From the NCBI GenBank assembly GCA_037431425.1, contig GCA_037431425.1_4129.1: 64,000 bases of DNA. One strand, written 5' to 3'. The stretch comes from a phage. Positions within the stretch are counted from its first letter, which is position 1; every line of letters starts with the position of its first letter. The translations under genes were made by a program, and so were the position numbers. Shown in pieces: positions 1 to 64,000 of this stretch. Below the pieces are notes generated by a model that did no database searches, was not told the origin of the DNA, and saw only the letters and a list, made by a program, of their open reading frames with translations.

Positions 1-13
1 ATAAGGAATTCAA

Positions 14-1978
14 ATGGCTAAGAAAGAAAGTGCTGTCCTACAGGAACATGATGTTCAACGACTAAACGATTATCAACATGCTCGTTTACGTACTGAGATG
101 TATCTCGGTTCTCGTTCAGTACATGAAAGTCAAGTACTGATTTTTGGTGAATCAGGATATGAAGTTAAGAATGTAGAATGGGTTCCTGCAATTCTTACTG
201 CTACGCGTGAAATTATTGATAATAGCTTGGATGAATTTAAAAAAGCTGGAACTAAAGAACCTGTTTTGAAAGTTGATTTCAATGAAGAAGAACTATCATT
301 TGAGATTAGTGATAATGGTCGTGGTATTCCAATTGATTATGTTCCAGAGTATCAAAAAAACCTATGTACAATGGTAATGACTGAAACAAAAACTGGTCGT
401 AACTTTGACGATTCCAAACGTGATGAAACTATTGGTCAGAATGGTTTGGGTGGTTCAGTTGCGATGATTGTTAGTTCTAAGGCAGAATTGGAAATTCATC
501 GTCAAGGTCGTCCATATAAAACACAAAGCAGTAATGATGGTTATGATGGGTTTTATAAGTTCAATCAGAAGTTCGAAGAAGGAACTATTATGTTCCCTGA
601 ACTTCATGTACATGAACCTACAATTAGAAAGGTACAAACCGATAAAACTGGTACAACAATTCGTTTTACATTGAGTAAAGAAGTTTTTCCAAATAGAAAA
701 TTACCTACTGAATTACTTTACAGTATTCTTAAAGAAATGGCAGCCGCTAATCCGACTTATAAAATATTTTTGAATGGTAAACGTATTGTCATTAAAGGTA
801 ATACAGAGAAAGCATTGTTCAATGCATCGAAATTAATGCAGTTGCATGTTAAAGATGATTCATTCAATTTTAACAGTACTTTTTATATTGTTCCTAATGC
901 AGTATCTAACATGAACACTAACTTTCATATGCATGGGTTGGTTAACAATGCACCTGCGTTTGATGGTGGTACACATCTTGACACATTTAAAAAATTCTTT
1001 TCTTTGGGTGTAGGAGCAGCTCTAGAGAAAGAATCCAAGAAACGTAGAATGAAACCAAACCGTTCTGACATTGAAGAAGGATTGTTGATTTATAACGTCA
1101 CGACGATGAAAGCACCTTCGTTCAATTCACAGATTAAATCTAAACTAACAAATGAAAATGTAATTCGTCCTATTCAACAAGCAATGAGTTCTGAGTGGTT
1201 TGATGAATTGGTTAAGAAGAATAAAGAGTGGGTTGATGAAATTTTTGAACGCTGTGCAGCCCGTACTAATAAGAAAGATGCTGAAGAAGATCGCCGATTA
1301 GCTAAAAAGCTTCTAAAAGGAAAGGTTGCAAAATTACTTGATAGTACTGGTACTGATCGTTCACAGTGTATTTTATTGATTGCAGAAGGTGACTCTGCTA
1401 TTTCCAACATGGCAAGTGCTCGTATACCAAGTATTCATGGGATTCTACCATTGCGTGGAAAGATTATGAACGTCAGTGGTTCTGAAAAGACTAAAGAATT
1501 AATGGATTCTATGGCATTGCATGACATAATGGCTAGTATCAATTTAGTTCCAGGAGTTAAAGCTGACCGAGCAGACCTGAACTACGGTAAGCTTTATATT
1601 TGTGCAGATGAAGATGAAGATGGTAAGAATATCGGAGCATTAGTATGTAACTTCCTGTTCAAATTCTGGCCTGAATTGTTCCAAGATCCAGAAAATCCAT
1701 TTGTGTACATATTCAAAACTCCATTTATCATTCTAGAGAAAGGTAAGGAAACAAAATACTACTATGGTCATGACGTACATGAATACAATCCTGACGATTG
1801 GAAAGGTTGGAAAGCAACTCGTGCAAAAGGGCTTGGTACGTTAGAAAAATCAAACTTCCGCGACGCATTCACACATAGTGTTGCAGTAGCAATCACTGAT
1901 GATGGACGTCTTGGTGAAACTCTTGATTTGATTTTCAACAAGAAACGTGCAGATGACCGCAAGAACTGGATGGAATAA
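14..1978 (+). CDS. DNA topoisomerase II large subunit (T4 gp39-like; contiguous gp39+gp60-equivalent)
   Basis: 654 aa; GHKL ATPase motifs EIIDNSLDE and DNGRGIP, Toprim-like IAEGDSA; collinear with recalled T4 gp39. Confidence 0.9.
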   Translation: MAKKESAVLQEHDVQRLNDYQHARLRTEMYLGSRSVHESQVLIFGESGYEVKNVEWVPAILTATREIIDNSLDEFKKAGTKEPVLKVDFNEEELSFEISDNGRGIPIDYVPEYQKNLCTMVMTETKTGRNFDDSKRDETIGQNGLGGSVAMIVSSKAELEIHRQGRPYKTQSSNDGYDGFYKFNQKFEEGTIMFPELHVHEPTIRKVQTDKTGTTIRFTLSKEVFPNRKLPTELLYSILKEMAAANPTYKIFLNGKRIVIKGNTEKALFNASKLMQLHVKDDSFNFNSTFYIVPNAVSNMNTNFHMHGLVNNAPAFDGGTHLDTFKKFFSLGVGAALEKESKKRRMKPNRSDIEEGLLIYNVTTMKAPSFNSQIKSKLTNENVIRPIQQAMSSEWFDELVKKNKEWVDEIFERCAARTNKKDAEEDRRLAKKLLKGKVAKLLDSTGTDRSQCILLIAEGDSAISNMASARIPSIHGILPLRGKIMNVSGSEKTKELMDSMALHDIMASINLVPGVKADRADLNYGKLYICADEDEDGKNIGALVCNFLFKFWPELFQDPENPFVYIFKTPFIILEKGKETKYYYGHDVHEYNPDDWKGWKATRAKGLGTLEKSNFRDAFTHSVAVAITDDGRLGETLDLIFNKKRADDRKNWME

Positions 1979-2028
1979 TATAGGCTAATGGGGGACATGG
2001 TGTTCCCCTTTTATAAAGAGACAATGGA

Positions 2029-3441
2029 ATGGCTAAAAGTAAAAAAACAGAAAATCATAATATCGATAACCAAACGCTAACTCTACTAGATTATAACAGT
2101 TCTGATTATGTGAATACCACATCATTAGAGTATTCAATGTACACACTAGATCGTGCAATTCCTGGCATTGACGGTCTAAAGAGTTCACAACGAAAAGCAA
2201 TTTTCACATTATCTAAAATCAGTGGTGAAATTAAAACAGTATCATGTGCTGGTAAAATGATCAGCGATGGCATCTATCTTCATGGTGACACATCTGCATC
2301 AGGAACACTTCAGAACTTAGCATCACCAGTAGCCAATAATTATCCACTAATAGGTAAACGTGGTGGATTTGGTACACAAGTAAACAGCACACCAGCATCT
2401 GCACGTTACACATATGTGAGGAAGAATAAGAGTACTGAGATGCTTGTTTTGCGTGATGTGGATATTATTCCAATGAAAGAGAACTATGACGGGACAACAT
2501 ACGAACCAGTTCATTTCTTGCCTATCATTCCATTATCATTGTTTGGTAATGATAGTATGTCAGTTGGTTATAAGAGCACAATTCTACCACATAAAATTGA
2601 AGATATTATTGATAATTGTATTCGTGCTATTGATAAAAAACCACTAAAAGAAATGACACCATACTATGTGTCATGTGGTGCAAGCGATGTAGTAACCAAG
2701 CTGGATGAAAACAAGTACGAGTTTTATGGTAAAGCACAAGTCATTGATGCAAGTACTGTTAAAGTTACAGGATTACCACCTAATTATGGTATTGAGAAGT
2801 TCATTGAAAAACTCATCAAGATGAGTGATGATGGGGAAATTCGTGATTATGACAATAACAGTACTGATGTAATTGATATTACAATTAAACTTCCACGTGG
2901 AACGTCAGCTAAATGGACAGAGATGGATGTTATTGAGTATTTTGGTATTAACAAAAAAATAACTCAGCATTTAACTGTTCTTGGGGAAAATGGTAAAGTA
3001 AAAGTTTACGATACTACTATGGACTTGATTAAAGACTTTGTGGATTTTCGTTTCAAATATTATATCAAGCGTTATGAAAAGAAACTTGATGATTGTGCCG
3101 CAGAGGTTCGTTATAAAATTCTAATTAAAGAATGTTTCGATAATGATATGATTGCTAAGGTAAAAGGATTTGCCAACCGTGCGGAGATGGTTGAATTCGT
3201 TAAATCATTAAATGTCGAAATTCAAGCAACTGAAGATAATATTCAAAGCATTGTAAACTTCCCTTCATATCGCTGGACACAAGATAATTATCAATCAGTT
3301 CTACAAGATATCCAGGACAATCTAGATTTGATGGATAAGTACAATGAATTACTATCTAACCATGATCTGATTTGGGATATTTATAAATACGAACTTAAAG
3401 AACTGAAAAAGATTGATTTCACACCTAAATCTGATAATTGA
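2029..3441 (+). CDS. DNA topoisomerase II medium subunit (T4 gp52-like, GyrA-type)
   Basis: 470 aa; motifs YSMYTLDRAIPGIDGLK, ASARYTYVR, FLPIIPLSLFGN match recalled gp52/GyrA N-terminal domain. Confidence 0.9.
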   Translation: MAKSKKTENHNIDNQTLTLLDYNSSDYVNTTSLEYSMYTLDRAIPGIDGLKSSQRKAIFTLSKISGEIKTVSCAGKMISDGIYLHGDTSASGTLQNLASPVANNYPLIGKRGGFGTQVNSTPASARYTYVRKNKSTEMLVLRDVDIIPMKENYDGTTYEPVHFLPIIPLSLFGNDSMSVGYKSTILPHKIEDIIDNCIRAIDKKPLKEMTPYYVSCGASDVVTKLDENKYEFYGKAQVIDASTVKVTGLPPNYGIEKFIEKLIKMSDDGEIRDYDNNSTDVIDITIKLPRGTSAKWTEMDVIEYFGINKKITQHLTVLGENGKVKVYDTTMDLIKDFVDFRFKYYIKRYEKKLDDCAAEVRYKILIKECFDNDMIAKVKGFANRAEMVEFVKSLNVEIQATEDNIQSIVNFPSYRWTQDNYQSVLQDIQDNLDLMDKYNELLSNHDLIWDIYKYELKELKKIDFTPKSDN

Positions 3442-3451
3442 TATATTAAAT

Positions 3452-3480
3452 GGAAGACCCATTGGGTCTTCCTTGTCCTT
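3452..3480 (+). terminator. hairpin terminator after topoisomerase genes
   Basis: GGAAGACCC-att-GGGTCTTCC stem-loop followed by T-rich tract. Confidence 0.55.
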
Positions 3481-3482
3481 TA

Positions 3483-3490
3483 TATAAATA
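3483..3490 (+). promoter_or_regulatory. T4-type late promoter-like TATAAATA
   Basis: exact TATAAATA about 40 nt upstream of ATG 3529. Confidence 0.4.
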
Positions 3491-3528
3491 ATCAATAGAT
3501 AATGGTAGCTTGGCTATGGAGAATTACA

Positions 3529-5922
3529 ATGAGAACTTTTACCCCACGTTGGGATATAAAAGCCGATGCTCGATATATACAAGAAGGACAAGACATTCTT
3601 TTGCGTTTGAGTATCAACAAAAATAGCACAACGGATGCTAGTTATGTATTAAATGAAGATGAATACTTAGAGATGATTCTTACAATACAATGCTTGGATA
3701 GTTCAGGTACAGTATTTGAACCAGAATCGCATTATACTTTTTTTGTGGGTAATGATGAAAACAGTTTTATACCCATTTCTGAAGGAACTACTGGAAATAA
3801 ATTTGTAAATGGAAAACATAAATGTAAAATTAGTAAAACACAATTTAACTTATCAGGCAGTTCTAATAGTGAAGATGTATATTTTATAAAAATTCATTGT
3901 AAAAATGACGGGACATACAACAATACCGAAATTATCAATTTTTATTTACAGGCAGTAAATGTGATGTATTTTGGTAATATTTCACCGAGTGGTGAGTTGG
4001 GAACAACTGACGCATCAATAACATATGATAGTCAGGAAGTTTGGGTTACACCTGGTGTAGAGATTGGTGATGATAAAAAACCATACTGTATTGGAGATGT
4101 TGATTATGGTTCTAACAGTACATTATTTGTACAAGGATTTGGTAGAAGACGACCTTTTATATTAGGTACTGACATTACGGATGATATTACACCCCGCGTA
4201 TTTTTCCCAGCTTATAGATTGGTTGATATGGATATATCGGAAGTTCCGCAGAATCACATCACAAATGATTATGCCGTTTTTAAACCAGCCCAAACCGTAT
4301 GGCCTATTTCGGGTATAAACAAAGAAGTTAAAGTTAACATTCAAAACAAAAACGGAAGCACAATTGATACTGGAATGATTTTCAACCCAAATGGTCAATT
4401 ACTTCAAACATTTTTGTACGAATCTGAAGCATGTGACACATATTTTAAGGTTGAGATTGTAGACATTTTAAGTACTTATGTAGATGATAGTGAGAGATTT
4501 GCAATAAATCAACGTTACAAAGCATATCAAATGTGGGTATGCCCAGAAGACATAGACACTATATATTCAATCTCTGATAAACCATTACCAAATCATTTGT
4601 ACCAATTAAAAGATAATGTAGTTTATCCATATGTAATTACTGGTGAGTATGACGATGGTACACTTAAGCCGGTATATGATAGTAGTGATTGGCTAGATTT
4701 AGGTTATTACGATCCAACTCTTGGTGAAAATATCATTGGAATGCAAAAAATATTCAGGGTATTAGTTAATGCAGAAGAAGGGAATAACATAAACTTCATA
4801 ACTGAGAGTGACTTAGGAACCATTCATGTAGGGGAATACTTTGGGAATAGCGTCTATCCTAAGATAGAAACTGATAGTAAAAGTCAGGTTTCTTATATAT
4901 TAGATGGTGGTGATGATATTAGAAAATATGGAATGGACTTAACACCAGATGGTTATCTAGTAGGAACTGCATTTGCTAAAAGTATGGATTTTAGTGCTAA
5001 TGATGATATTAAACTTTCATTTTACGTTAAAGCATTCAGTTCTGACGGTGGTGAGGCAAAAAAATTATTTAATCTTAAAATCGTAAGAGGTTTTGGACAA
5101 AATTATTTAAGTGCACATGTTCTACCATCTGTTTCTTTTGAAAGAGATTGGTTTAAATGTATTAGTACTTCATCATTTACTAACCAATTATTTTTTCGTC
5201 AATCCGATGATAGATATGGTCTTCAAAAAGTACCAAAAATGCTATTGAAAGAAAATTTTCTAAGTCAAACGTACCCATACACTAATCTTTCTGATATTAA
5301 GAAAGTATTACGAAAGAGTATTGTTGATACAAATGGAACCACTATTCCGAATGGTAAATTTAAAATGGTAATGGGTAATTATAAATTGTTATCAGCACTT
5401 GACAATCAAGGAAATTTGCAATATGATTTATTGTACCGTGAAGTTTTACCTGAAGGTTCGTTGGTGTCAGTGTCCAAAAATCCACGTCAGTACACACAAA
5501 TTGACAACGGTCTACTGGGTGAACTGTTCGGCTTACGACAAAACATATTCAAAGCAATTGGTGAAGATACAACCAACTTGATCAAAGATCCTACAGATTT
5601 ACAAAACCGTGGTATGTATGTTGATGCTATACCTAGTGTTAGTGAAGAGATGCTTGATACTGTTCCTAGGTTTATGAATCACCCCTATATTGAAAATAAC
5701 CTACAGAAAAAATTCATGCCTATAATTCCAGTTGCATATTGTCTGCCAGGCAAAGGTGAAGCATTTTTCAACACTTTACTACAGAATAATGAACATGGTA
5801 CAATGGTCGGTCTAGAATTTGAAATTACATCGGTGGAGTTTGGGTATTTTTCACATGAATCAGATAATTATGTACCTGATACATTTGTAATTACATTACC
5901 AAACAATAACATAGGAGTTTAA
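3529..5922 (+). CDS. large hypothetical protein, possibly virion-associated (late-promoter context)
   Basis: 798 aa ORF from ATG 3529 with GGAGA RBS; track ORF starts 3502; Gly/Asn/Tyr-rich, no catalytic motif recognised. Confidence 0.6.
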   Translation: MRTFTPRWDIKADARYIQEGQDILLRLSINKNSTTDASYVLNEDEYLEMILTIQCLDSSGTVFEPESHYTFFVGNDENSFIPISEGTTGNKFVNGKHKCKISKTQFNLSGSSNSEDVYFIKIHCKNDGTYNNTEIINFYLQAVNVMYFGNISPSGELGTTDASITYDSQEVWVTPGVEIGDDKKPYCIGDVDYGSNSTLFVQGFGRRRPFILGTDITDDITPRVFFPAYRLVDMDISEVPQNHITNDYAVFKPAQTVWPISGINKEVKVNIQNKNGSTIDTGMIFNPNGQLLQTFLYESEACDTYFKVEIVDILSTYVDDSERFAINQRYKAYQMWVCPEDIDTIYSISDKPLPNHLYQLKDNVVYPYVITGEYDDGTLKPVYDSSDWLDLGYYDPTLGENIIGMQKIFRVLVNAEEGNNINFITESDLGTIHVGEYFGNSVYPKIETDSKSQVSYILDGGDDIRKYGMDLTPDGYLVGTAFAKSMDFSANDDIKLSFYVKAFSSDGGEAKKLFNLKIVRGFGQNYLSAHVLPSVSFERDWFKCISTSSFTNQLFFRQSDDRYGLQKVPKMLLKENFLSQTYPYTNLSDIKKVLRKSIVDTNGTTIPNGKFKMVMGNYKLLSALDNQGNLQYDLLYREVLPEGSLVSVSKNPRQYTQIDNGLLGELFGLRQNIFKAIGEDTTNLIKDPTDLQNRGMYVDAIPSVSEEMLDTVPRFMNHPYIENNLQKKFMPIIPVAYCLPGKGEAFFNTLLQNNEHGTMVGLEFEITSVEFGYFSHESDNYVPDTFVITLPNNNIGV

Positions 5923-24452: not shown

Positions 24453-26333
24453 ATGAAACCTATCCGAGTACTATCTCTTTTTAATGGGATGAGTGTAGGA
24501 TACATGGCATTAAAAGATGCTGGTATCCCTGTTGAAAAATATTATTCATCCGAAATTGACAAATTTGCTATAGCTGAATCCCAAGCTAACTTCCCCGATA
24601 TCATCCAATTGGGTGATGTAACTAGATGGAGAGAATGGGATATTGAATGGGATAAGATAGATCTACTGATGGGTGGTTTTCCATGCTTCCCAGCAGGAAC
24701 TATGATAATGACAAATAAAGGTCATAAAGATATAAAAGATATAAAAATTGGTGATATGGTTCTTACACACACTGGACAGTACCAAAAAGTATTGAGTACT
24801 GGTGTTAAAAAGGCTCCCACTCGTATTATTACAGGTCAAGGTCACCTTCCAATTGAATGTACCGATAATCATCCATTTTGGAGTAGGGAACGTCTAGCCA
24901 ATAAATGGAATAATCAACACCGAAGATATGATTCTGTGTTTTCTGAACCGCAATGGGTAAATGCTATAGATCTTACTAAACAAAGTTATATTTGTAATGT
25001 TAAAAATATTACACATAATACAGTAAGTGATAAAGATGAAAAATATTGGTATTTTGTTGGTCGTTTTATGGGTGATGGATGTGCTAGTGTATCTAATAAC
25101 AAATACAGTATTACTATTGTAGATTCATTAGATAAAGTTGATGAATTGAAAAAATGTTTTGATGATTTTGGATACAAATACACATTAGCTATTAAAGATA
25201 ATCATGTAAGATGTGATATATATAGCAAAAAGCTTTATGATGAATTAATATGTATTGGGCATAAATCACAAAACAAATGTTTACCACCTGAAATATTCAA
25301 TGAAACTATCAATAACAAAGAAGCATTTATTAAAGGATACATGGATGCAGATGGTTGTGAGGATAAACACAATAAAAAATACAAATTTACCACCACAAGT
25401 TATAAAATAGTTCTTGGTATGCAACAGTTAATCTTAGATACTTATCAACGTCATTGTACTATTAGTCAAACTGTTCCAAAAACAAAAAAATATATAAAAA
25501 ATAAGTTGGTTAATCAGCTTCCGTATTGGAATGTTCATTTTAGCTATAATAAAATTAAAAGAGATGATGTAATATATGATGAAATTTATATATGGAATCG
25601 TGGTGTAAAAAGTAATGTACCAACCGGAGAATGGAAAACCGTTTACAATATTGAAGTTGCAGTAGATAACACATATACAGCGAACAATATTGTAGTTCAT
25701 AACTGCCAAGCGTGGTCAGTTGCAGGTAAACAGGGTGGAATAAATGATCCTCGTGGTATGTTATTCCATACAATGGTTGATATTTACCAGCACATAAAAA
25801 GTCTCAATCCAGACTTGAAAGTACTGTTCGAGAATGTTAAAATGAAAGAAGATTTCAAGCAATACATTAATAGTGTTCTTGAGATGACACCAGTACTGAT
25901 AAATTCCCAGCATTATACGCCTCACTTCAGGCAGAGATATTACTGGTACAGTACTGATAAACTTTTTATACCACCTGCATTATCAAATGCACCTAAACTT
26001 CAAGATATTATTGAAGATGGTTGGTACACTGACAGAACCGCTTCGTACTGTATAGATGCTAACTATTTTAAGGGTGGGGATTGTAACCAGTACTTTAATA
26101 AATCAAGAAGACAAATTGTTTTCAAAGAACCTGATATCGATAGGGATTTCCTTCTTGAACATGGTAAGCGAAATGTGGACTATCGTCATTTAACAGTGCA
26201 AGAGTGTTGCATGTTGCAAGGAATTGATGTAAACTACTTCAAAGTTAGTAGTTCAACACAAGCATACAAAATGCTTGGGAATGGATGGACTATGCCAGTT
26301 ATATCACACTTACTACGAGATATATTCTTTTGA
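24453..26333 (+). CDS. DNA (cytosine-5)-methyltransferase precursor containing an intein
   Basis: 626 aa; motif I SLFNGMSVG; motif IV GGFP|CQAWSVAG split by 340-aa insertion; ENV motif (LFENV) in C-extein; extein about 286 aa. Confidence 0.8.
   Translation: MKPIRVLSLFNGMSVGYMALKDAGIPVEKYYSSEIDKFAIAESQANFPDIIQLGDVTRWREWDIEWDKIDLLMGGFPCFPAGTMIMTNKGHKDIKDIKIGDMVLTHTGQYQKVLSTGVKKAPTRIITGQGHLPIECTDNHPFWSRERLANKWNNQHRRYDSVFSEPQWVNAIDLTKQSYICNVKNITHNTVSDKDEKYWYFVGRFMGDGCASVSNNKYSITIVDSLDKVDELKKCFDDFGYKYTLAIKDNHVRCDIYSKKLYDELICIGHKSQNKCLPPEIFNETINNKEAFIKGYMDADGCEDKHNKKYKFTTTSYKIVLGMQQLILDTYQRHCTISQTVPKTKKYIKNKLVNQLPYWNVHFSYNKIKRDDVIYDEIYIWNRGVKSNVPTGEWKTVYNIEVAVDNTYTANNIVVHNCQAWSVAGKQGGINDPRGMLFHTMVDIYQHIKSLNPDLKVLFENVKMKEDFKQYINSVLEMTPVLINSQHYTPHFRQRYYWYSTDKLFIPPALSNAPKLQDIIEDGWYTDRTASYCIDANYFKGGDCNQYFNKSRRQIVFKEPDIDRDFLLEHGKRNVDYRHLTVQECCMLQGIDVNYFKVSSSTQAYKMLGNGWTMPVISHLLRDIFF
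24684..25703 (+). mobile_element. intein with LAGLIDADG homing-endonuclease domain
   Basis: starts CFPAGTMIMT (block A), TDNHPFW (block B TxxH), two LAGLIDADG-like motifs (FVGRFMGDGCAS, FIKGYMDADGCE), ends VVHN followed by Cys +1. Confidence 0.8.
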
Positions 26334-26815
26334 ACATAAACAAACACCAAACTTATATAAAACGTGCAGAAAGTTTCAAACGGCTGGCTGTAAAATCTGA
26401 ATTAGAATTTAATTTGTATTATCCTAATATTGGTGATGAGGTATTTTATTGCTCACATTCAAAGAATGGAACTTTACTTAAATCGGGTAAAGGAACTATT
26501 GTTGATATGACCGCAAATTTCAGAGGTAAACTTAATGTAATGTACAAAGTGCAAGATTCAAGTACTGAGTGTATTCATGAAGTGATGCATAACATACCTG
26601 CATATCCAAAAGATTTTGTTCAGCTAATATCTCGAAGGGAGAAACCTATGTTCTATTGTGGTTACGACAAATTAACCAAACAAATTATTCCTAATACTAT
26701 GGGAAAATTTAAAAGTGATGTAAAATCTGAATTAGAAAAGAAATTTGGTACATCATGGGAAACTGAAAACGAGTTTATCGAAATTCGTTTAATTGAAGTT
26801 ACTATTATTGATTAA
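26285..26815 (+). CDS. hypothetical protein
   Basis: 176 aa ORF; 5' end overlaps methyltransferase gene, true start unclear. Confidence 0.45.
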   Translation: MDYASYITLTTRYILLNINKHQTYIKRAESFKRLAVKSELEFNLYYPNIGDEVFYCSHSKNGTLLKSGKGTIVDMTANFRGKLNVMYKVQDSSTECIHEVMHNIPAYPKDFVQLISRREKPMFYCGYDKLTKQIIPNTMGKFKSDVKSELEKKFGTSWETENEFIEIRLIEVTIID

Positions 26816-32793: not shown

Positions 32794-32881
32794 AATATTC
32801 AATAAGAGAATTAATGAGTTATTAAATAGTTAGAGATCAAAACACATACATTCGCAGTTACGTCAAAAATCACTTTATATT

Positions 32882-32908
32882 ACCCAGTACTAGTACTGGG
32901 TATTTTTA
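32882..32908 (+). terminator. intrinsic terminator built on palindrome CCCAGTACTAGTACTGGG
   Basis: perfect inverted repeat followed by TATTTTTAT. Confidence 0.65.
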
Positions 32909-36027: not shown

Positions 36028-36143
<116 letters not shown>

Positions 36144-36150
36144 CAAAAGA

Positions 36151-36224
36151 CGGGGTATAGCACAATTGGATAGTGCAAGAGAATTCTAATCTCTAGGTTG
36201 GGGGTTCAAGTCCCTCTACCTCGG
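36151..36224 (+). tRNA. tRNA-Arg (anticodon UCU)
   Basis: manual fold: acceptor CGGGGTA/TACCTCG, anticodon stem AGAGA/TCTCT, loop ATTCTAA, T-loop TTCAAGT. Confidence 0.75.
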
Positions 36225-36248
36225 CCTACTTCAATTAAAGGTTAAACC

Positions 36249-36413
36249 ATGACGCATGAAGAATGGATGAATGACATTAATTTTAGATATGCAGGTATCG
36301 GTAACTGGAGAAAGTATCATTGGGAAATCATATCAGACCCAGCAGAATACGATAAACTTATGAATCATGAAGTGTATCCGTGGTTCTTTATTGAAATAAT
36401 GGTACGATTATGA
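36249..36413 (+). CDS. MTHEEW-family small protein (54 aa), tandem copy 1
   Basis: not in track; MTHEEWMNDINFRYAGIG... Confidence 0.45.
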   Translation: MTHEEWMNDINFRYAGIGNWRKYHWEIISDPAEYDKLMNHEVYPWFFIEIMVRL

Positions 36414-36570
36414 CACATGAAGAATGGATGAATGACATTAATTTTAGATATTCGGGTATCGGTAAATGGCTAAAGTATCATTGGGAATTCATTTCAGAGC
36501 CACATCTGTATGATAAACTTATCAACGATTCTGCATATAAAATGTACTTAATTGAACTACTGGTACGAAC

Positions 36571-36574
<4 letters not shown>
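36410..36574 (+). CDS. MTHEEW-family small protein (54 aa), tandem copy 2
   Basis: MTHEEWMNDINFRYSGIG...; start overlaps upstream stop. Confidence 0.45.
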
Positions 36575-36743
<169 letters not shown>

Positions 36744-36747
36744 AATC

Positions 36748-37188
<441 letters not shown>

Positions 37189-37216
37189 GTATCTTAACAA
37201 CAGAAGGTATATTGAA

Positions 37217-37456
37217 ATGGGTAAGTATTTTGTGAGTTATAGTTATAATGTATCACGAAAGATTCCACGCGGTGACGGAATGGGATGGTCTTATGATGCA
37301 TATACTTTAAATGAGTCATGTATCATCGAATTACAAGAAAAAGACCTTGACATTTTAAAAATCAAACAATATATTCTTGATGTTGAATTGGCACATCGTA
37401 CTGATACCTATCCAGATGTAAACAACATCAGCATCTTAGTACTAACCAAAGTATAA
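37217..37456 (+). CDS. hypothetical protein
   Basis: ATG 37217 after AGAAGG RBS; track start 37187. Confidence 0.5.
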   Translation: MGKYFVSYSYNVSRKIPRGDGMGWSYDAYTLNESCIIELQEKDLDILKIKQYILDVELAHRTDTYPDVNNISILVLTKV

Positions 37457-37526
37457 GATAAAAAGAACTTTACTAAATAATTCCACTGGAGATTAATATG
37501 TTTAAAGATGAACGTCCAGATTTGTA

Positions 37527-37565
<39 letters not shown>

Positions 37566-37571
37566 GAATTC

Positions 37572-37925
37572 CACAATCAGACGTATATGGTGTAAGTTAC
37601 GTCGATGCTATCCAGAACAAGATCTCTGGTACTCTAGGAAGTGGTGAATGTTAACCTAGACGGGTTTGATAATTGGACGATAGGCAATTATTACTTGACT
37701 AGCAGGTTGAAACTAGAGGTGACAGTCCTTCACCAAACTGGAAAGCCGGATGGACTTTTATTTAAAAGGGTAAGGCGTGGAAATATGTTTACTGTAGTTG
37801 CTTTTAGTAGCCTGTACGCCCCACGTCAAGGTAGTCGAAAGGCAAGTTAAAACGGGTGGTTATAAAGCTGAATTAACAGCGGCGTTTAAAAGCGTCACCA
37901 TCCATTTTTTTAATTAAAGTTGGCT
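37572..37925 (+). ncRNA. candidate structured noncoding RNA (unclassified)
   Basis: noticeably more GC-rich than flanks; only a poor 69-codon ORF; directly downstream of consensus promoter; inside tRNA cluster. Confidence 0.3.
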
Positions 37926-37927
37926 AT

Positions 37928-38295
<368 letters not shown>

Positions 38296-38305
<10 letters not shown>

Positions 38306-38324
38306 TATTCAGTACTGATATAAT
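38296..38324 (+). promoter_or_regulatory. sigma70-type promoter (TGGACA-17-TATAAT) for tRNA-Ser
   Basis: -10 ends 6 nt before tRNA 5' end; spacer contains TTCAGTACTG. Confidence 0.55.
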
Positions 38325-38330
38325 TAATTT

Positions 38331-38417
<87 letters not shown>

Positions 38418-38429
38418 TAAATTGTTCCA

Positions 38430-38516
<87 letters not shown>

Positions 38517-38566
38517 CTGATATTGTTATTATATGAGTTCTAACGATAATGAAACACTAGGAACAT

Positions 38567-38737
<171 letters not shown>

Positions 38738-38761
38738 ACGAAATTACAATAGGAAATTAAA

Positions 38762-38947
38762 ATGCAACTTTTAATTCTTTCAATATTGTATATTATTATA
38801 ATGGTTCCGATATCAATACGTTTAATTACAGTTGAACGATTTTTATCGAAACATGGAAATAGATCTATGATATTTGTACCAATCGGGTTGATATTGTTTG
38901 GTATATTTTCATTTATAATGGGAATTAACGCTACATTCATTTCATAG
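38762..38947 (+). CDS. small membrane protein
   Basis: 61 aa, two hydrophobic helices; RBS AGGAAA. Confidence 0.5.
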   Translation: MQLLILSILYIIIMVPISIRLITVERFLSKHGNRSMIFVPIGLILFGIFSFIMGINATFIS

Positions 38948-38956
38948 GAAACAAAT

Positions 38957-39214
<258 letters not shown>

Positions 39215-39316
39215 ATAAAAAGAACGAAAAGTAGACGGTCGTATTCAGTACTGAATCACCAGGGGAGGTTGTGATTCCCGATTCAGTAGCTTAAAAGCAG
39301 ACCCGTATGTGCCTAA

Positions 39317-39369
<53 letters not shown>

Positions 39370-39370
39370 T

Positions 39371-39416
<46 letters not shown>

Positions 39417-39417
39417 T

Positions 39418-39551
<134 letters not shown>

Positions 39552-39553
39552 TA

Positions 39554-39737
<184 letters not shown>

Positions 39738-39817
39738 TAAATAATACAGTAAGATGGCCTCCCCTCCATATCATGAGAGTATAGAGACTTGTTGGTTATC
39801 TTACTTTTAAACAAACT

Positions 39818-39891
39818 GCCTCAATAGCAAAATTGGTAATGCACACGTTTTGTAAGCGTGAGATTTTTCCGTTCGAGTCGGAATTGGGGCA
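39818..39891 (+). tRNA. tRNA-Thr (anticodon UGU)
   Basis: manual fold: acceptor GCCTCAA/TTGGGGC (one GU), anticodon stem CACGT/GCGTG, loop TTTGTAA, T-arm TTCCG-TTCGAGT-CGGAA; variable loop 6 nt (slightly atypical). Confidence 0.65.
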
Positions 39892-39908
39892 CAAAATAAA
39901 GGCACACT

Positions 39909-50664: not shown

Positions 50665-51630
50665 GTGAAAAAACTTGATTTGAATACAATTGCAGATGAA
50701 GTTCTGGATGAATGCTTTGGTAATGAAGAAGTGAATACGCTGGATGCGTTAGAACCAGTTCAAGAAAAAGATAACATTGACGAGAAAAATAATGGTAATT
50801 TCAAGTTTAATATTAGTCTTAAGCGACCAGCAAATGTAACAAATGAAGATATTATTCGTGATATTCAAGCAGGTATTAACGTAAAGAAAAATACTGAACT
50901 ATTAGTTCGTTATAATTACGGTTTGATTATTGATGTTGCAAGTAAATGCACGTGTTATATTCCATTTGAAGATAAGATTTCATATGGCATTGAGGGATTC
51001 ATGCGAGCATTAAAAACATTTGACCTTAGTAAGAATGTAAAGTTCGCTACGTATGCATCGTCAAGTATCTATATGACTGTATACAATGAAAGCTCAGATG
51101 CTAATCATCTGGTCCACTTCCCTCGTTACATGAGTGTTAATAAGATACAAGTGAAACGCTTCTGTCATAATTATGAGCGTCAGCATGGTTGTCGTCCTAC
51201 ACCTGAAATTATTTCTGAAGAGACTGGTATTGAAATCCAGCACGTTAAGAATTGTTTATTATTCCAAAGTGAATATACTTCACTGGATGCACCATTGGAT
51301 GGTGTTTCTGATGGGACGATGAGTGATATTCTGCATTCATCTGAAGGTGATTATAATCTTAATGTTGACAGTATTCGTGCACCGTTGCGTTATACCATCA
51401 ACGAACTAACTAATGAGTTGAGTGCTAAGGAATGTGAGATTATTCAACGTGTTCATGGATTAGGTGAATTTAATCCTGAAACACTACGTGAAATTGCTGA
51501 TAGTGGTTTTATTGATGACAATGGTAAGTGTGTAAAATCCAGATCTTCGGTTCATCGTAAATACAGTGATGCTCTTAAGAAACTCAAGAAATTAGTGCTC
51601 GCTAAAGGGTACGAATACGAAGATTTCTAA
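50665..51630 (+). CDS. RNA polymerase sigma factor, sigma-70 family (regions 2 and 4)
   Basis: 321 aa; GTG start after AGGAGAAG RBS; region 2-like FMRALKTFD...KFATYASSSI and region 4 HTH-like LREIADSGF...SRSSVHRKYSDALKKLKKL. Confidence 0.6.
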   Translation: MKKLDLNTIADEVLDECFGNEEVNTLDALEPVQEKDNIDEKNNGNFKFNISLKRPANVTNEDIIRDIQAGINVKKNTELLVRYNYGLIIDVASKCTCYIPFEDKISYGIEGFMRALKTFDLSKNVKFATYASSSIYMTVYNESSDANHLVHFPRYMSVNKIQVKRFCHNYERQHGCRPTPEIISEETGIEIQHVKNCLLFQSEYTSLDAPLDGVSDGTMSDILHSSEGDYNLNVDSIRAPLRYTINELTNELSAKECEIIQRVHGLGEFNPETLREIADSGFIDDNGKCVKSRSSVHRKYSDALKKLKKLVLAKGYEYEDF

Positions 51631-54042: not shown

Positions 54043-54070
54043 TTGACATAAGATATCAGTACTGTATAAT
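54043..54070 (+). promoter_or_regulatory. sigma70-type promoter (TTGACA-16-TATAAT)
   Basis: TTGACATAAGATATCAGTACTGTATAAT; spacer contains CAGTACTG. Confidence 0.7.
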
Positions 54071-57781: not shown

Positions 57782-58014
57782 TATTGAATTTTGTAGTTGT
57801 GTTTTTGTTTATGTTATATCCTACACTTGTAGCATTAGCCACTAAACGAACATGGACACACATTATTACTGTTTTCTTTCTTAACGTTGTTCTTGTATTT
57901 GTGTCTATTATTATTCCAATAAGCTTTACATATACTGACATTGTATTTGTATTACTCTTTGTGTTCAGTTATCTTATGCTCATTGATGAAAATAATATTG
58001 ACAAACGTTCTTAG
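57772..58014 (+). CDS. small integral membrane protein
   Basis: 80 aa, 2-3 TM. Confidence 0.5.
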   Translation: MYLVLNFVVVFLFMLYPTLVALATKRTWTHIITVFFLNVVLVFVSIIIPISFTYTDIVFVLLFVFSYLMLIDENNIDKRS

Positions 58015-59573: not shown

Positions 59574-59578
59574 ATTTT

Positions 59579-59770
59579 ATGTTGATTTATCAATGTGACG
59601 GTATTCGTGTTCTACAACATCCTTATCTTCAAATCTTTCATGTTCAGATGTTTATGGAAGGTGATAATCCGAGAACTTATGAACGCACATATGATTATTT
59701 CACGGTCAAAGAGTGCGACAACATCGATGAAGTACGACGATTAGTACATGAACTCCAAAACAAAGGTTGA
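59579..59770 (+). CDS. hypothetical protein
   Basis: 63 aa; stop codon inside terminator stem. Confidence 0.5.
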   Translation: MLIYQCDGIRVLQHPYLQIFHVQMFMEGDNPRTYERTYDYFTVKECDNIDEVRRLVHELQNKG

Positions 59771-59790
59771 CTTCGGTCAGCCTTTTTTGT
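59762..59790 (+). terminator. intrinsic terminator with UUCG tetraloop (copy 1 of 3)
   Basis: AAAGGTTGAC-TTCG-GTCAGCCTTTTTTGTT. Confidence 0.85.
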
Positions 59791-59824
59791 TATAATTATT
59801 TTATATTCTAATGGAGTTTAAATT

Positions 59825-60265: not shown

Positions 60266-60602
60266 GACTCAAATAGAATTAAAAAAATTTGTATCGTTCT
60301 ATCTACCAAATGATCCACGTAATTCACAAAAAGATTTTGAATATTATAATATCCTAAGTAAACAGTTAATGAGAAAGTTTCAACAGTGTTTAAGTATATT
60401 CAATACTGATGGTAGACGTAGATACCGAATCATTTCAATGAATGATGAAAACGCAAACTACTTTGATTATGATGTTGTTTTTAGAGCATATAATGATGAC
60501 CGAATTAAATTAAATTATGATCAAATAATATTTGATCTAAGTGCTATATCTGTTATAATTACTCACATCGCCGAGATTAATGGTTTTAAAGAGTGGTATT
60601 GA
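60258..60602 (+). CDS. hypothetical protein
   Basis: ATG 60258 after GAGG RBS; track start 60246. Confidence 0.5.
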   Translation: MDKTQIELKKFVSFYLPNDPRNSQKDFEYYNILSKQLMRKFQQCLSIFNTDGRRRYRIISMNDENANYFDYDVVFRAYNDDRIKLNYDQIIFDLSAISVIITHIAEINGFKEWY

Positions 60603-60616
60603 ATAGAGGACAATAT

Positions 60617-60883
60617 ATGAAGCTTAAATTGCAATATAATGGATTTACTTTACGTAATGATACTGAGTTTGTCAATCGTTCACCTGGTGCTGAACTTTTT
60701 TTGCGAGAGATGAACATTCCTTTCATCATCACTACTGTAGGAGATCGTGAAGTTTTACAATACGCAGAGCATCCTATTATTGATGTTCCTTGGTACTCTG
60801 AACATATGTACATGGATATGGCACGTCGCTACAACTGTAAGTTCATAGTAGAAGGTGATAAAATTACAGTACAATTTAAATGA
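60617..60883 (+). CDS. hypothetical protein
   Basis: ATG 60617 after AGAGGA RBS; track start 60593. Confidence 0.5.
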   Translation: MKLKLQYNGFTLRNDTEFVNRSPGAELFLREMNIPFIITTVGDREVLQYAEHPIIDVPWYSEHMYMDMARRYNCKFIVEGDKITVQFK

Positions 60884-60952
60884 TGTGAATTGAAATGATC
60901 ATTTAAGCATCATTGTAAATGTAGAAATGGTGTACATGAAGTATAATATAAA

Positions 60953-60983
60953 AAGGGAAATCATATATGGTTTCCCCTTTTTC
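60953..60983 (+). terminator. putative intrinsic terminator
   Basis: GGGAAA...TTTCCC hairpin followed by CTTTTTC. Confidence 0.5.
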
Positions 60984-61024
60984 TTATTACGTACAATTAA
61001 GGACATATATTAATTGAGGAAATT

Positions 61025-61597
61025 ATGAATCGTAAAGGTCGTTTTAAGGTATCAAAGAAGAACAAAAGTTCTAGATTTAAGCCTATAGTTTTAACCGTTA
61101 AAGCCAAAGCGGAATTAACTGCACTTAGTAAAAAGATCATTTCATCTAAGATTAAAGTATCATACGTAAATTCGGTAAAATATCGAAAGGTTAAACCACA
61201 AGACCTACTCATTTCACTTATATTTGAACGTAATGATTTTGAGATATCAGTGGATGATTATAGAGCCTATAATGCTGGTTTCATTAATGTTACTTGTACT
61301 ACAGAACTAACTGAATTAGAACATTTGTCATGTATAGTAAATCTCGATAAAGGTGTAGTGAAATACCACTTTGTACATTTTACTAATATTAATGATGGAA
61401 AGGGTGTACAATCCAGAACTATAGTACCTACATGTGATGTGACTAAATTATCAAAGCTCAATGACGAAGAATATTTTCAAGAAAGTACTGTAACTGAATA
61501 TATAGATGAAATTATAGCAACTTACAAAGAATGTATATGGGTTTTAAATGCAATGAAGCCTAAATTATGTTTGATGAATATTGTACGTGATTTATGA
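61025..61597 (+). CDS. CtFQ-family small protein
   Basis: 190 aa; motif DEEYFQESTVTEY; RBS GAGGAAA. Confidence 0.6.
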   Translation: MNRKGRFKVSKKNKSSRFKPIVLTVKAKAELTALSKKIISSKIKVSYVNSVKYRKVKPQDLLISLIFERNDFEISVDDYRAYNAGFINVTCTTELTELEHLSCIVNLDKGVVKYHFVHFTNINDGKGVQSRTIVPTCDVTKLSKLNDEEYFQESTVTEYIDEIIATYKECIWVLNAMKPKLCLMNIVRDL

Positions 61598-61610
61598 ATA
61601 AGGAATTGAA

Positions 61611-62054
61611 ATGTGTTGGGTAAATGTAAACAGTATTGAGCTTAATGAAAAAGATATTTTTGCATTTGTAAATTTAACAAATAATACAGTTCTAAAAGGT
61701 CGATTGTTCAGTTCCAGCACTGGTGAAAAATGGATTTCATTGATGAATGATTGTGGTGAGATTTATAATGTGATGTCGTTACCACAATGGGTCTATAGTA
61801 ACACTGCGGATGATGTTCTTGCAGCAGTTATGCGTGAGTTTGAAAAACTTCCCGGTGGTGATATCAAAAACAAAGTTTTTAATGCCGAGCGTAAAAATTA
61901 TACAGCACAGCAATTAGAATCACTCGCTATTGCTGCATATCAAGCTGCTATTAAGAAGCCAGAATGTGTTATTCTTAAGTATATTCCAGACTTAAAACTC
62001 ACATTGGAAGATATGGATGCATTCATTTTTACATCTGAACTTGAACAGTACTGA
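61611..62054 (+). CDS. hypothetical protein
   Basis: 147 aa; RBS AAGGAA. Confidence 0.55.
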   Translation: MCWVNVNSIELNEKDIFAFVNLTNNTVLKGRLFSSSTGEKWISLMNDCGEIYNVMSLPQWVYSNTADDVLAAVMREFEKLPGGDIKNKVFNAERKNYTAQQLESLAIAAYQAAIKKPECVILKYIPDLKLTLEDMDAFIFTSELEQY

Positions 62055-62124
62055 TTTAACTTTGGGACAAACCTTCCTATAATGATATAATTTTTTTGTC
62101 AGTTTATTTAAATGACATATGAAA

Positions 62125-62132
62125 TATAAATA
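62125..62132 (+). promoter_or_regulatory. T4-type late promoter-like TATAAATA
   Basis: exact TATAAATA 36 nt upstream of ATG 62168. Confidence 0.4.
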
Positions 62133-62167
62133 TTATTGTAAAGTTTATCTCTTATAGGAGTTATAAA

Positions 62168-62551
62168 ATGGTTGATAAATGGAATAAGAAAGAACCATCT
62201 CATGATGTGGATATTTCTGACCTAGATAATGAACATAAACACAAGTACCTAGATTCACTAGGACTACTAAAGCCGGACCAAAGTATTGCACATGATCGTC
62301 CTTCACGTGAAAAAGCATTCAGTCTGGAATCTCTAGGTCATGAGCTAAATCGTGTGTTTGAAGAACACCCAATCTATGTACGTGATATTATTGAGAAACT
62401 TAAAGTAACTCCTAAAGAGCACTTTAAAGCAACTGTACACTCTGCATTCAATGCATTACATGAAGCACTTAAGAAAACTCACAACCTTCGTAAGATTCAT
62501 GATGATATTGTAAATGCAATTGAAAGTGAAAAGCATAAGTTCAAAAAGTAA
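62168..62551 (+). CDS. hypothetical basic protein, paralogue of N-terminal region of 62616 protein
   Basis: 127 aa; shared YLDSLGLLKPDQ / YVNSLGLLNATQ and IEKLKVTPKEHFKATVHSAFNAL / VKELQSVPKEELKVKAQAVLDAM segments; RBS TAGGAG. Confidence 0.6.
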   Translation: MVDKWNKKEPSHDVDISDLDNEHKHKYLDSLGLLKPDQSIAHDRPSREKAFSLESLGHELNRVFEEHPIYVRDIIEKLKVTPKEHFKATVHSAFNALHEALKKTHNLRKIHDDIVNAIESEKHKFKK

Positions 62552-62552
62552 T

Positions 62553-62582
62553 AGAAAGGGTTGACTTCGGTCAGCCTTTTTT
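62553..62582 (+). terminator. intrinsic terminator with UUCG tetraloop (copy 2 of 3)
   Basis: GGTTGAC-TTCG-GTCAGCC followed by TTTTTTT. Confidence 0.85.
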
Positions 62583-62589
62583 TATATAC

Positions 62590-62597
62590 TATAAATA
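62590..62597 (+). promoter_or_regulatory. T4-type late promoter-like TATAAATA
   Basis: exact TATAAATA 19 nt upstream of ATG 62616. Confidence 0.4.
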
Positions 62598-62615
62598 TAA
62601 TCATAGAGAAAAAAC

Positions 62616-63887
62616 ATGAAATCTATGGAGAGAAATCAAATGCCAAGTAATTTTACTGATAAAAATGGTGGTAACATGGCAGGTCACTCGGATAAATGGA
62701 GTGAACGCAACCGCCGCCCAAATAGTTACCAAGCAGGCCAAGGTTCCCGTGGCTCCAGAAACCAAGGAACGGGACTTGCTGGCAAGGCAAACGCAGAAGC
62801 AGGTGAAGTTAAGAGTACTGAGAACATGACTGAGCTAGAAAAGCTACGTTATGTTAATTCATTAGGACTTCTTAATGCTACACAAAAACAACGTCTAGCT
62901 GATATGGAACGCGAAGAAAAAGAAAAAACAACTACTAAAGAAGAATCAAAACAGGAAGCACCGAAGCCGTCTAACCCTGTCAAAGAACTGTCTGATAAGT
63001 TAGGTAAGATCTTTGCAAATAAACCCCAACTTATTCAAGGTATTGTCAAAGAATTACAATCTGTACCTAAAGAAGAATTAAAAGTCAAAGCACAAGCTGT
63101 TCTGGATGCAATGAAAGGAAATACCAGTACTGAACCAACTGAAGTGTTCAGTACTATTATGCGTGCACTGGAAGGTAAACAACAAGGTGAAGAACGTGGT
63201 GATGAAGTAAGTCTTGAACGTATTCTTAAAACATTTGATAGTATTGGGAAAGAAGATCGTGTTAATGCACAACAGGTTAAAAATGTTCTAGCAAAATTGG
63301 AAAACCGTCTAGAAGGTAAAGATGATAAGATTAAATTGGTATCTGATGTAGTTGACAATGCACTTAAATCTTATGTACAAGGTGAAAAGAGTCGTTTTGT
63401 GACCGCGATGGATGCAGCATTCAATACTATGAAAAAGTACGAAGCTGACCATGGTGAGAAGGTTACACCTGATGGTTATCTGATGCGTGATGATGAAGAA
63501 GGTGCAGTAGAACAGAATGATGTTCATTCTGACGAAGATATTGATGACATGGAAGCTGAACTGTCACAAGATCGCCAAATGACTGAAAAATCACACAACG
63601 AACTAAAGAAATTAATGCAGTGGGTCGCTGATGTTGGAGAAAAAGCGGGTGCTGATAAGAAAAGTATAAACCGAAATCTTAGTTGGATTAAAGATAAAGT
63701 AGGTAACAACGCTCGCAAACTACAAAAAGCATGGACTGATGTAGTGAATGGTGCAGTAGATATTGACGTTGAATCTGGTGAAGCATATGATTATGCATTG
63801 ACTACACTTGATGATTCTTTTCGTGACTACGAAAAAGGAAACGTGACTCCTTGGGAAAAGGACATAATGAGCAAATACGGCAAATGA
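62616..63887 (+). CDS. hypothetical highly charged protein (possible late/virion internal protein)
   Basis: 423 aa, K/E/D-rich; N-terminal region paralogous to 62168 product. Confidence 0.6.
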   Translation: MKSMERNQMPSNFTDKNGGNMAGHSDKWSERNRRPNSYQAGQGSRGSRNQGTGLAGKANAEAGEVKSTENMTELEKLRYVNSLGLLNATQKQRLADMEREEKEKTTTKEESKQEAPKPSNPVKELSDKLGKIFANKPQLIQGIVKELQSVPKEELKVKAQAVLDAMKGNTSTEPTEVFSTIMRALEGKQQGEERGDEVSLERILKTFDSIGKEDRVNAQQVKNVLAKLENRLEGKDDKIKLVSDVVDNALKSYVQGEKSRFVTAMDAAFNTMKKYEADHGEKVTPDGYLMRDDEEGAVEQNDVHSDEDIDDMEAELSQDRQMTEKSHNELKKLMQWVADVGEKAGADKKSINRNLSWIKDKVGNNARKLQKAWTDVVNGAVDIDVESGEAYDYALTTLDDSFRDYEKGNVTPWEKDIMSKYGK

Positions 63888-63892
63888 TAACA

Positions 63893-63922
63893 AAAAGGTT
63901 GACTTCGGTCAGCCTTTTTTGT
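63893..63922 (+). terminator. intrinsic terminator with UUCG tetraloop (copy 3 of 3)
   Basis: AAAAAGGTTGAC-TTCG-GTCAGCCTTTTTTGTT. Confidence 0.85.
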
Positions 63923-64000
63923 TATGATAGTGCTATCCACTATTGAGGCCAGAGAGATGACAAAGCAAGAAATATTCAAAACTTTAATTGACATATTACG

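Follow-up and report, generated by a model that had tools for sequence, protein, structure and literature searches.

Why should a phage genome carry one palindromic hexamer far more often than its composition predicts? This question is raised by a 64,000-nucleotide (nt) stretch of phage DNA (contig GCA_037431425.1_4129.1 of the NCBI GenBank assembly GCA_037431425.1), referred to below as the window, in which the word AGTACT, i.e., the ScaI site, is strongly over-represented. The window shares 97-98.5% identity with Escherichia phage ph0011 and about 86-88% with phages 121Q, PBECO4 and phAPEC6, and these relatives are Rak2-like jumbo myoviruses of the genus Asteriusvirus. It extends from the topoisomerase II genes into an early-type region of small open reading frames (ORFs), and contains six tRNA genes and a phage sigma70-family gene. 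Short palindromes are normally purged from phage genomes, yet in this clade, with genomes of 350 kb, one hexamer is accumulated instead. Here, AGTACT is found to be a real DNA-level signal kept by natural selection. We tentatively propose that it serves as a clade-specific recognition word in the duplex DNA of the Rak2-like phages, which would be read by a two-fold-symmetric, phage-encoded protein that marks the DNA and controls a class of early promoters.

An earlier note on this DNA, made by eye, had put the octamer CAGTACTG, which contains AGTACT, at roughly 20 copies against an expectation of under one. The over-representation and the expectation are both confirmed, while the number rises to 31 copies, compared with 0.66 expected and a maximum of 3 in dinucleotide shuffles; AGTACT itself occurs 127 times (15.2 expected). 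An order-3 Markov model applied to both strands yields 62 CAGTACTG (5.7 expected) and 254 AGTACT (88.5 expected), and when the motif is masked from the model, the 127 AGTACT sites compare with 18.4 (6.9-fold) and the approximately 31 octamers with 1.0. Because the order-3 excess is far above 1, the ratio near unity that the earlier note had named as evidence against its claim was not found. The word ranks first among the 6-mers and, as the octamer, among the 8-mers of the window (order-3 model), and the runner-up palindromic hexamer is enriched only 1.8-fold (motif masked). The word is sharply defined, because its one-mismatch variants are found at only 0.99-1.68 times expectation and none is depleted (AGTATT, 1.17). 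Its flank preference is symmetric, with C at position -1 or G at +1 in 47% of half-sites and a depletion of G at -1. The array and those exact octamer starts that correspond to the coordinates of the earlier note, which were right to within about 10 nt, are as follows.

1..64000, no strand: dispersed AGTACT array of 127 sites, 31 of which are CAGTACTG; 111 in ORFs, 16 intergenic.
Octamer starts (exact counting): 25891, 25949, 28207, 34105, 34687, 35347, 37171, 37551, 38310.
Further octamer starts (exact counting): 39246, 41160, 46833, 54057, 56115, 56268, 57612, 62046, 63125.

The sites are scattered as in a Poisson process (mean spacing 500 bp, coefficient of variation 1.04), i.e., regular spacing is rejected. 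Similar flanks are shared by only 4 of the 127 sites, which also rejects a single repeated element, the second outcome that the earlier note had named against itself, as the source.

Several lines of evidence place the signal in the DNA rather than in the encoded proteins. The density is about 2/kb in coding and non-coding DNA of the window alike, and the sites occupy all three reading frames, as the earlier note had stated (54, 27 and 30 sites in frames 0, 1 and 2, respectively, and 16 between genes). A bias toward gene starts, which that note had suggested as a test, was absent from the window, as was a bias toward gene ends or stops. Shuffling of synonymous codons within each gene, which preserves every protein and its codon usage, left 31±5 AGTACT (maximum 47 in 500 shuffles) compared with the 111 observed, and the excess over these shuffles was 3-5-fold in each of the three frames of the window ORFs. 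In addition, Ser-Thr was spelt AGT-ACT in 54 of 99 dipeptides where 13 were expected, and the Ser-Thr and Val-Leu dipeptides were themselves over-represented in the window proteins. Among the 92 sites that can be aligned with 121Q, 70 (76%) are intact, compared with 43 (47%) expected at 86.5% identity from a baseline of arbitrary hexamers. Conservation exceeds this baseline in every codon phase and between genes. The commonest alternative state at orthologous sites is AGTTCT, the change that is mild for the protein in each of the frames (silent at Val, Thr to Ser or Tyr to Phe). Selection on the individual sites is weak but real, and sites turn over.

A separate observation concerns the direction of this turnover. 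The window has AGTTCT where 121Q has AGTACT at 12 positions (e.g., 3297, 5038, 7166, 9364, 39037, 39367, 40731 and 46196), while the reverse is seen at only 2, and this asymmetry suggests a net loss of sites in the sub-lineage of the window. Phage UE-S1 shares at least one of these losses.

The excess is a trait of the clade. Across the sampled stretches of Rak2-like genomes the density of AGTACT is about 2-5/kb, i.e., approximately 30-80 times that of the host, for which the comparison proposed in the earlier note gave 3 sites in 50 kb of E. coli K-12 (0.06/kb). Rich in the word are the genera Asterius-, Alcyoneus-, Mimas- and Eneladusvirus as well as phages Munch and XaC1, and the excess was present in 121Q, RaK2, GAP32, CBB, Munch, Serratia BF, Yen9-04 and XaC1. 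AGTACT is also the top hexamer in two more regions of 121Q, in RaK2 (tail genes included), in GAP32 (5/kb) and in CBB. The orthologous topoisomerase block, compared among UE-S1, fEgEco12, A4, RaK2, Munch, Serratia BF, Yersinia fHe-Yen9-04, GAP32, CBB and XaC1, holds 1.4-3.2 sites/kb, with the highest density in XaC1, for which the recorded host is Xanthomonas. No excess was seen in the sampled stretch of the distant relative PA5oct (1 site, 7 expected), in 11 kb of the distant relative Atu_ph07 (0 sites), in T4 (2 sites, 3.9 expected) or in a phi92-like coliphage (0 sites, 5.3 expected); the last two reject a generic, host-driven feature of coliphages. A scan of IMG/VR for dense AGTACT triplets, aimed at independent AGTACT-rich lineages, returned as non-Rak2 hits among the matches listed only coding tandem repeats. 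In the searched papers on genomes of the Rak2 group we found no prior description of the word.

Individual sites can be followed across genera in a codon alignment of the two topoisomerase genes, where one site is shared by all 12 genomes and others by 7-10.

875..880, no strand: site in the topoisomerase II large-subunit gene (alignment column 879); AGT-ACT (Ser-Thr) in 12/12 Rak2-like genomes at approximately 30% nucleotide divergence.
2752..2757, no strand: site in the topoisomerase II medium-subunit gene (alignment column 741); 10/12 genomes.
2860..2865, no strand: site in the topoisomerase II medium-subunit gene (alignment column 849); 8/12 genomes, the others having AGTTCT or AGTTCA.

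The site at 875..880 is ancient. The same alignment shows lineage-specific gains of the word that changed amino acids, e.g., Lys-Glu and Met-Asp to Ser-Thr in XaC1; the clade changes even its protein sequences to create AGTACT sites. The flanks vary by genus (C..G in Asteriusvirus and RaK2, A..T in Mimasvirus) around an invariant core, as would fit a co-evolving reader. The claim of the earlier note that the word is a DNA-level signal is thus upheld by the synonymous shuffles, the equal coding and intergenic densities, the conservation above baseline, these deep cross-genus sites and the clade-wide occurrence.

A minority of the sites, about 10%, form paired boxes that abut the -35 and -10 elements of a class of early promoters, and this arrangement is conserved between genera. 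Pairs of AGTACT 18-22 bp apart are enriched (29, with 13.6 expected). In the early region of GAP32 such pairs are the boxes of a stereotyped promoter whose spacers diverge, aaaAGTACT-TTGACA/TGCAA ... AGTACT-tTATAAT, and this design recurs in the window at 37532 and 38291. In Mimasvirus the word is found at 7 bp (10 sites, 0.7 expected) and 27-29 bp (15 sites, 2.1 expected) from TATAAT, and the same offsets are seen in Asteriusvirus. In two genera AGTACT also abuts TTGACA on either side at fixed, strongly enriched offsets of ±5-6 bp. The copies that the earlier note placed in promoter spacers immediately 5' of the -10 element are real (37172, 37552, 38311 and 54058) and belong to the following elements of the window.

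37532..37565, + strand: dual-box early-type promoter; AGTACT at 37532 abuts the -35 element TTGACT and AGTACT at 37552 lies 2 nt upstream of TATAAT at 37560, the boxes being 20 bp apart.
38291..38324, + strand: dual-box promoter-like element; AGTACT at 38291 and 38311 followed by gaTATAAT, directly upstream of tRNA-Ser (38330).
37157..37184, + strand: promoter with a single -10-proximal box, TTGACT-N9-AGTACT-g-TATAAT.
54043..54070, + strand: promoter with a single -10-proximal box, TTGACA-N9-AGTACT-g-TATAAT.

The promoters at 36748, with a decayed box (AGTGCT), and at 54043 are paralogues of that at 37157. The sigma70-family factor encoded at 50665-51630 of the window has regions 2, 3 and 4. 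No phasing of AGTACT with the late motif TATAAATA or the motif TGAAACG was found, and a link to late or middle promoters is rejected on these grounds.

Beside these promoters stands a cluster of six tRNA genes (Ser-TGA, Arg-TCT, Ser-GCT, Met, Asn and Thr-TGT; window 36057-39892), with which paralogous AGTACT-box promoters are interleaved. In the codon usage of the window, AGT is the commonest Ser codon and ACT a major Thr codon.

The terminator reported in the earlier note at 32882 is credible, its palindrome forming a terminator-like hairpin (dG -12.6, z -3.0) ahead of a U tract, while the hairpin that it reported at 39250 is no better than shuffled sequence (z +0.8). A dense non-coding locus of 1-2 kb with 10-12 AGTACT/kb, located outside the window, is homologous in RaK2 and 121Q.

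32881..32898, + strand: 18-bp perfect palindrome CCCAGTACTAGTACTGGG with two overlapping AGTACT sites, followed by a T tract; intrinsic-terminator-like hairpin.
121Q, 135.2-137.2 kb (L142 47200-49160): dense AGTACT locus with iteron-like GGCTAGATGG-type repeats.
RaK2, 224.6-225.9 kb (L030 2400-3620): dense AGTACT locus with Fur-box-like gataatgattctcatt repeats.

The two dense loci share an identical 21-nt block, AGTACTGATATGCCACTAAGT, and gave no match in Rfam. Possible roles for this locus are those of an origin, of a regulatory hub or of a nucleation site.

The earlier note had listed as possible functions a binding site for a phage or host protein, a modification or nicking target, and a recombination or packaging signal. 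The evidence leans toward a reader encoded by the phage rather than by the host, and no positive evidence was obtained for modification, nicking or packaging. The proposal of a phage-encoded reader is based on the exact palindrome and its symmetric flanks, the weak selection on about 1000 dispersed copies, the clade specificity, the flank preferences that apparently co-evolve, the fixed promoter offsets and the dense arrays. The reader would most likely be an abundant sequence-specific DNA-binding protein or, alternatively, a protein of the restriction-enzyme type that does not cleave, and its effective site would be the core of 6 bp with any base but G at position -1. Because AGTACT is found at 2-5/kb in the phages and at approximately 0.06/kb in the host sample, phage DNA would be the selective target of such a factor, which would mark or organize it throughout the genome. 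Each site would then add a small benefit, which would explain the Poisson scatter, the moderate conservation, the turnover and the gains that cost amino-acid changes. The same factor may control the sigma70-type early promoters in which two boxes abut the -35 and -10 elements, probably shutting them off. That the factor would belong to the phage is suggested by the clade specificity of the excess. What the data show is selection on the DNA, the restriction of the word to the clade, the promoter phasing and the contrast with the host; a protein as the reader, its origin in the phage and the effect of its binding are inferred. Such a system may let these phages, which have neither modified bases nor a phage nucleus, tell their own DNA from that of the host. 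The excess implies an unrecognized interaction of the DNA with a protein or an enzyme, under strong selection and operating at roughly 1000 sites in each genome, and anyone engineering these candidates for therapy may have to take the sites into account.

A number of observations weigh against this proposal. Scans of the window ORFs against Pfam and PHROG revealed no candidate reader, and none of the 120 ORFs matched a helix-turn-helix (HTH) or restriction-type Pfam family. A gene for a Cro-like HTH_37 protein, the one plausible candidate for the reader, is found only in CBB and GAP32, two genes upstream of the sigma gene and behind 1.2 kb of non-coding DNA; against this candidate, the window yielded no detectable homologue and the gene is not clade-wide. 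Recognition looks enzyme-like, i.e., the information resides almost wholly in 6 bp, which is closer to a type II enzyme than to a classical operator. The consensus of the non-coding sites is no longer than that of the coding ones, so the recognized unit is essentially 6-8 bp. Of the approximately 25 intergenic sigma70-like promoters of the window only about 5 contain the word, and the box has been lost from some promoter paralogues (AGTGCT at 36748, AGAACT at 57998), where it is dispensable; the boxes therefore modulate the promoters rather than define them. A promoter element as the main explanation is rejected, because the word is missing from the majority of sigma70-like promoters and ORFs contain 87% of the sites. 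The benefit of about 1000 intragenic sites is conjectural, and the host density is that of a single 50-kb sample of E. coli K-12.

Comparison with known systems helps to define what is proposed. The over-represented "architecture" words of bacterial genomes, i.e., Chi, the FtsK-orienting polar sequences (KOPS) and the DNA uptake and uptake signal sequences (DUS/USS), are read by RecBCD, FtsK and the uptake machinery, respectively. Like AGTACT, they are short exact words far above expectation, largely frame-independent, under weak selection at many dispersed copies, and different in frequency between self and foreign DNA. Unlike AGTACT, they are asymmetric and bacterial, and Chi and KOPS are oriented with replication, while AGTACT is a palindrome of a phage clade that is also found at fixed promoter positions. 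An orientation tied to replication is not possible for AGTACT, because both the word and its flank preferences are palindromic. The proposed logic is, by analogy, that of TF1 of phage SPO1, an abundant DNA-binding protein with a preference for phage DNA and a repressive effect on early promoters: in both cases a phage protein would favour phage DNA, bind genome-wide and overlap early promoters. TF1, however, recognizes hydroxymethyluracil-containing DNA at few, loosely defined sites, whereas here the identity would reside in ordinary bases and a dense, exact word, with binding that is only proposed. A subset of the AGTACT sites resembles repressor/Cro operators and the MotA boxes of T4 in being placed at fixed offsets that overlap or abut -35 and -10 elements. 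These systems differ in that operators are confined to intergenic DNA, whereas 111 of the 127 AGTACT sites (approximately 87%) are inside ORFs; the unit here measures 6-8 bp, compared with 14-20 bp in those systems; the word is missing from most promoters and, with about 5 occurrences in about 25, does not behave as a core sigma70 element; and the window scans revealed no cognate regulator gene.

The main alternative, which we regard as possible but rather doubtful, is that a phage enzyme modifies AGTACT covalently, by methylation or another mark, or nicks it. In this case phage DNA would be labelled as self, or events such as the shut-off of early promoters after replication would be timed, by the mark itself and not by a bound protein. 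The word is, as for type II enzymes, a 6-bp palindrome of sharp definition that carries little information in its flanks, and the clade encodes several DNA methyltransferases: a small Dam-family enzyme (PF05869) and a DNMT3-like 5-methylcytosine (m5C) enzyme, both clade-wide, and an N4/N6-type enzyme in Mimas- and Eneladusvirus. Furthermore, approximately 1000 ScaI-type sites in genomes that otherwise avoid most GC-containing palindromes would plausibly need protection. Methylation alone, however, gives no reason to accumulate sites. Targets of ScaI-type restriction-modification systems, which share the 6-bp palindrome, the sharp specificity and the scarcity of flank information, are normally avoided in phage genomes, and most other palindromes are avoided in this one too, whereas AGTACT is here enriched 7-fold. 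Nicking of both strands of a palindrome would break the DNA.

No methyltransferase or endonuclease could be assigned to AGTACT; of the three methyltransferase families of the clade, one is DNMT3-like and probably CpG-acting, one is not clade-wide, and one, the Dam family, is a candidate. The m5C enzyme (window 24453-26333) aligns end to end with the catalytic domains of DNMT3, which fits the methylation at CpG that has been reported for RaK2 DNA (PMC3622015), and AGTACT contains no CpG; a 51%-identical homologue is found in a phage with zero AGTACT in 20 kb sampled, and the enzyme was rejected as the writer. The N4/N6 enzyme of CBB and GAP32, absent from Asteriusvirus and RaK2, was rejected because it is not clade-wide, and the Dam-family enzyme is poorly conserved (only 41% identity between genera), in contrast to the invariant word. 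The restriction enzymes EcoRI, HindIII and ClaI are blocked by adenine methylation. These three were among the ten that cut fEgEco12 DNA as predicted in silico (PMC13070987), which speaks against this alternative. As an observation on the m5C gene itself, a C-5 cytosine methyltransferase gene, it is split by a 340-residue intein with a LAGLIDADG homing endonuclease, inserted exactly in catalytic motif IV (GFP|C...HN|CQ) with the catalytic Cys as the +1 residue. The copy in 121Q lacks the intein, and the window extein is the part that aligns end to end with mammalian DNMT3 catalytic domains.

A more speculative idea, to which we give a limited chance of being correct, is that the Rak2-like phages, with ordinary bases, encode self and non-self in the usage of two words, AGTACT being the positive and GCGC the negative tag. 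GCGC is absent from the window (about 22 expected) and from every AGTACT-rich stretch sampled, normal in every stretch without an AGTACT excess, and frequent in the host (342 in the 50-kb sample of E. coli K-12, 6.8/kb). It is this perfect co-occurrence, together with the extreme contrast between host and phage, that motivates the idea. The window also lacks 25 of the 64 palindromic hexamers (e.g., CTGCAG, 0 compared with 8.8 expected, and GGTACC, 0 compared with 9.7); GATC is reduced to 0.42 times expectation and CGCG is normal. This pattern suggests a GCGC-specific nuclease, either encoded by the phage or commonly met in its hosts. With two words, AGTACT would be bound by a phage factor that protects, organizes or preferentially expresses phage DNA, and GCGC would be the cleavage target of a phage nuclease, which would thereby destroy the host chromosome. 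Such a system, if true, would do for the Rak2-like phages what hydroxymethylcytosine does for T4. The combination "AGTACT-rich and GCGC-free" provides a simple signature for members of the clade in metagenomes.

A signal for replication or recombination is unlikely as the main function. According to this explanation the sites would be primase start sites, preferred topoisomerase II sites or Chi-like elements, a palindrome serving either direction of travel. Known primases read 3-5 nt and need no enrichment, which argues against this explanation. The uniform, Poisson-like density in every genome region and gene class, the weak selection per site with turnover, and the frequency of one site per 200-500 bp, which is of the order needed for lagging-strand priming, would all fit, and the clade has T4-type replication and recombination genes (PMC5259590). 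Topoisomerase and replisome genes are, however, also present in Atu_ph07, which lacks the word. This explanation leaves the fixed -35/-10 offsets unaccounted for and rests on no direct evidence.

Molecular drive, i.e., conversion of near-matches during frequent recombination by biased, Vsr-like mismatch repair or by directed mutation, is very unlikely. It would account for a word that is exact, frame-independent and gained through non-synonymous changes. In E. coli, vsr overlaps dcm, and in the window a small ORF likewise overlaps the 3' end of the m5C methyltransferase gene; this orphan ORF (26285-26815; gp92 of 121Q, phrog_28599) has no match to Vsr or any other Pfam family. Vsr-type repair depletes its source word, and the Vsr-like conversion is rejected because no one-mismatch neighbour of AGTACT is depleted. 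Neither the promoter phasing nor the shift of the flanks between genera is explained by drive.

The probability that a host DNA-binding protein reads the sites is smaller still. The obvious candidate is the nucleoid-occlusion factor SlmA, which binds GTGAGTACTCAC and which the phages could use, e.g., to block cell division. The core of its binding sequence (PMC3020112) is identical to AGTACT, SlmA sites are likewise palindromic dimer sites scattered over a chromosome, and most hosts of the clade are Enterobacterales. Yet SlmA requires G1, T2 and a purine at position 3, as well as A4 and G5, of the 12-bp palindrome GTRAGYRCTYAC (PMC3020112), whereas the phage flanks are T/A, T/A and C with G at -1 depleted, i.e., the outer GT..AC and the purine are absent. 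The window contains no match to GTRAGYRCTYAC and no copy of GAGTACTC, and SlmA was rejected as the reader. The density of AGTACT is also vastly higher than that of SlmA sites. A host reader in general is unlikely because, in addition to the absent SlmA flanks, other coliphages (T4 and the phi92-like phage) lack the excess, and XaC1, densest in the topoisomerase block, was recorded on Xanthomonas. Finally, an artefact of base composition, of codon or dipeptide usage or of one repeated element, which might be suspected since the codons AGT, ACT and GTA are common and more sites lie in frame 0 (Ser-Thr) than in any other frame, is practically excluded by the Markov models and the synonymous shuffles, the excess in every frame, the equal intergenic excess and the scarcity of similar contexts.

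A last observation concerns the terminators of the window, in which a fused terminator-promoter cassette is present in three copies (59763-59800, 62557-62594 and 63895-63932). Its hairpin, GGTTGAC-UUCG-GUCAGCC followed by a U tract, has a dG of -14 to -19 (z -5 to -7), and the stem contains the -35 hexamer TTGACT with a -10-like hexamer 18 bp later. A similar cassette is found in RaK2 (L030, around 1115).

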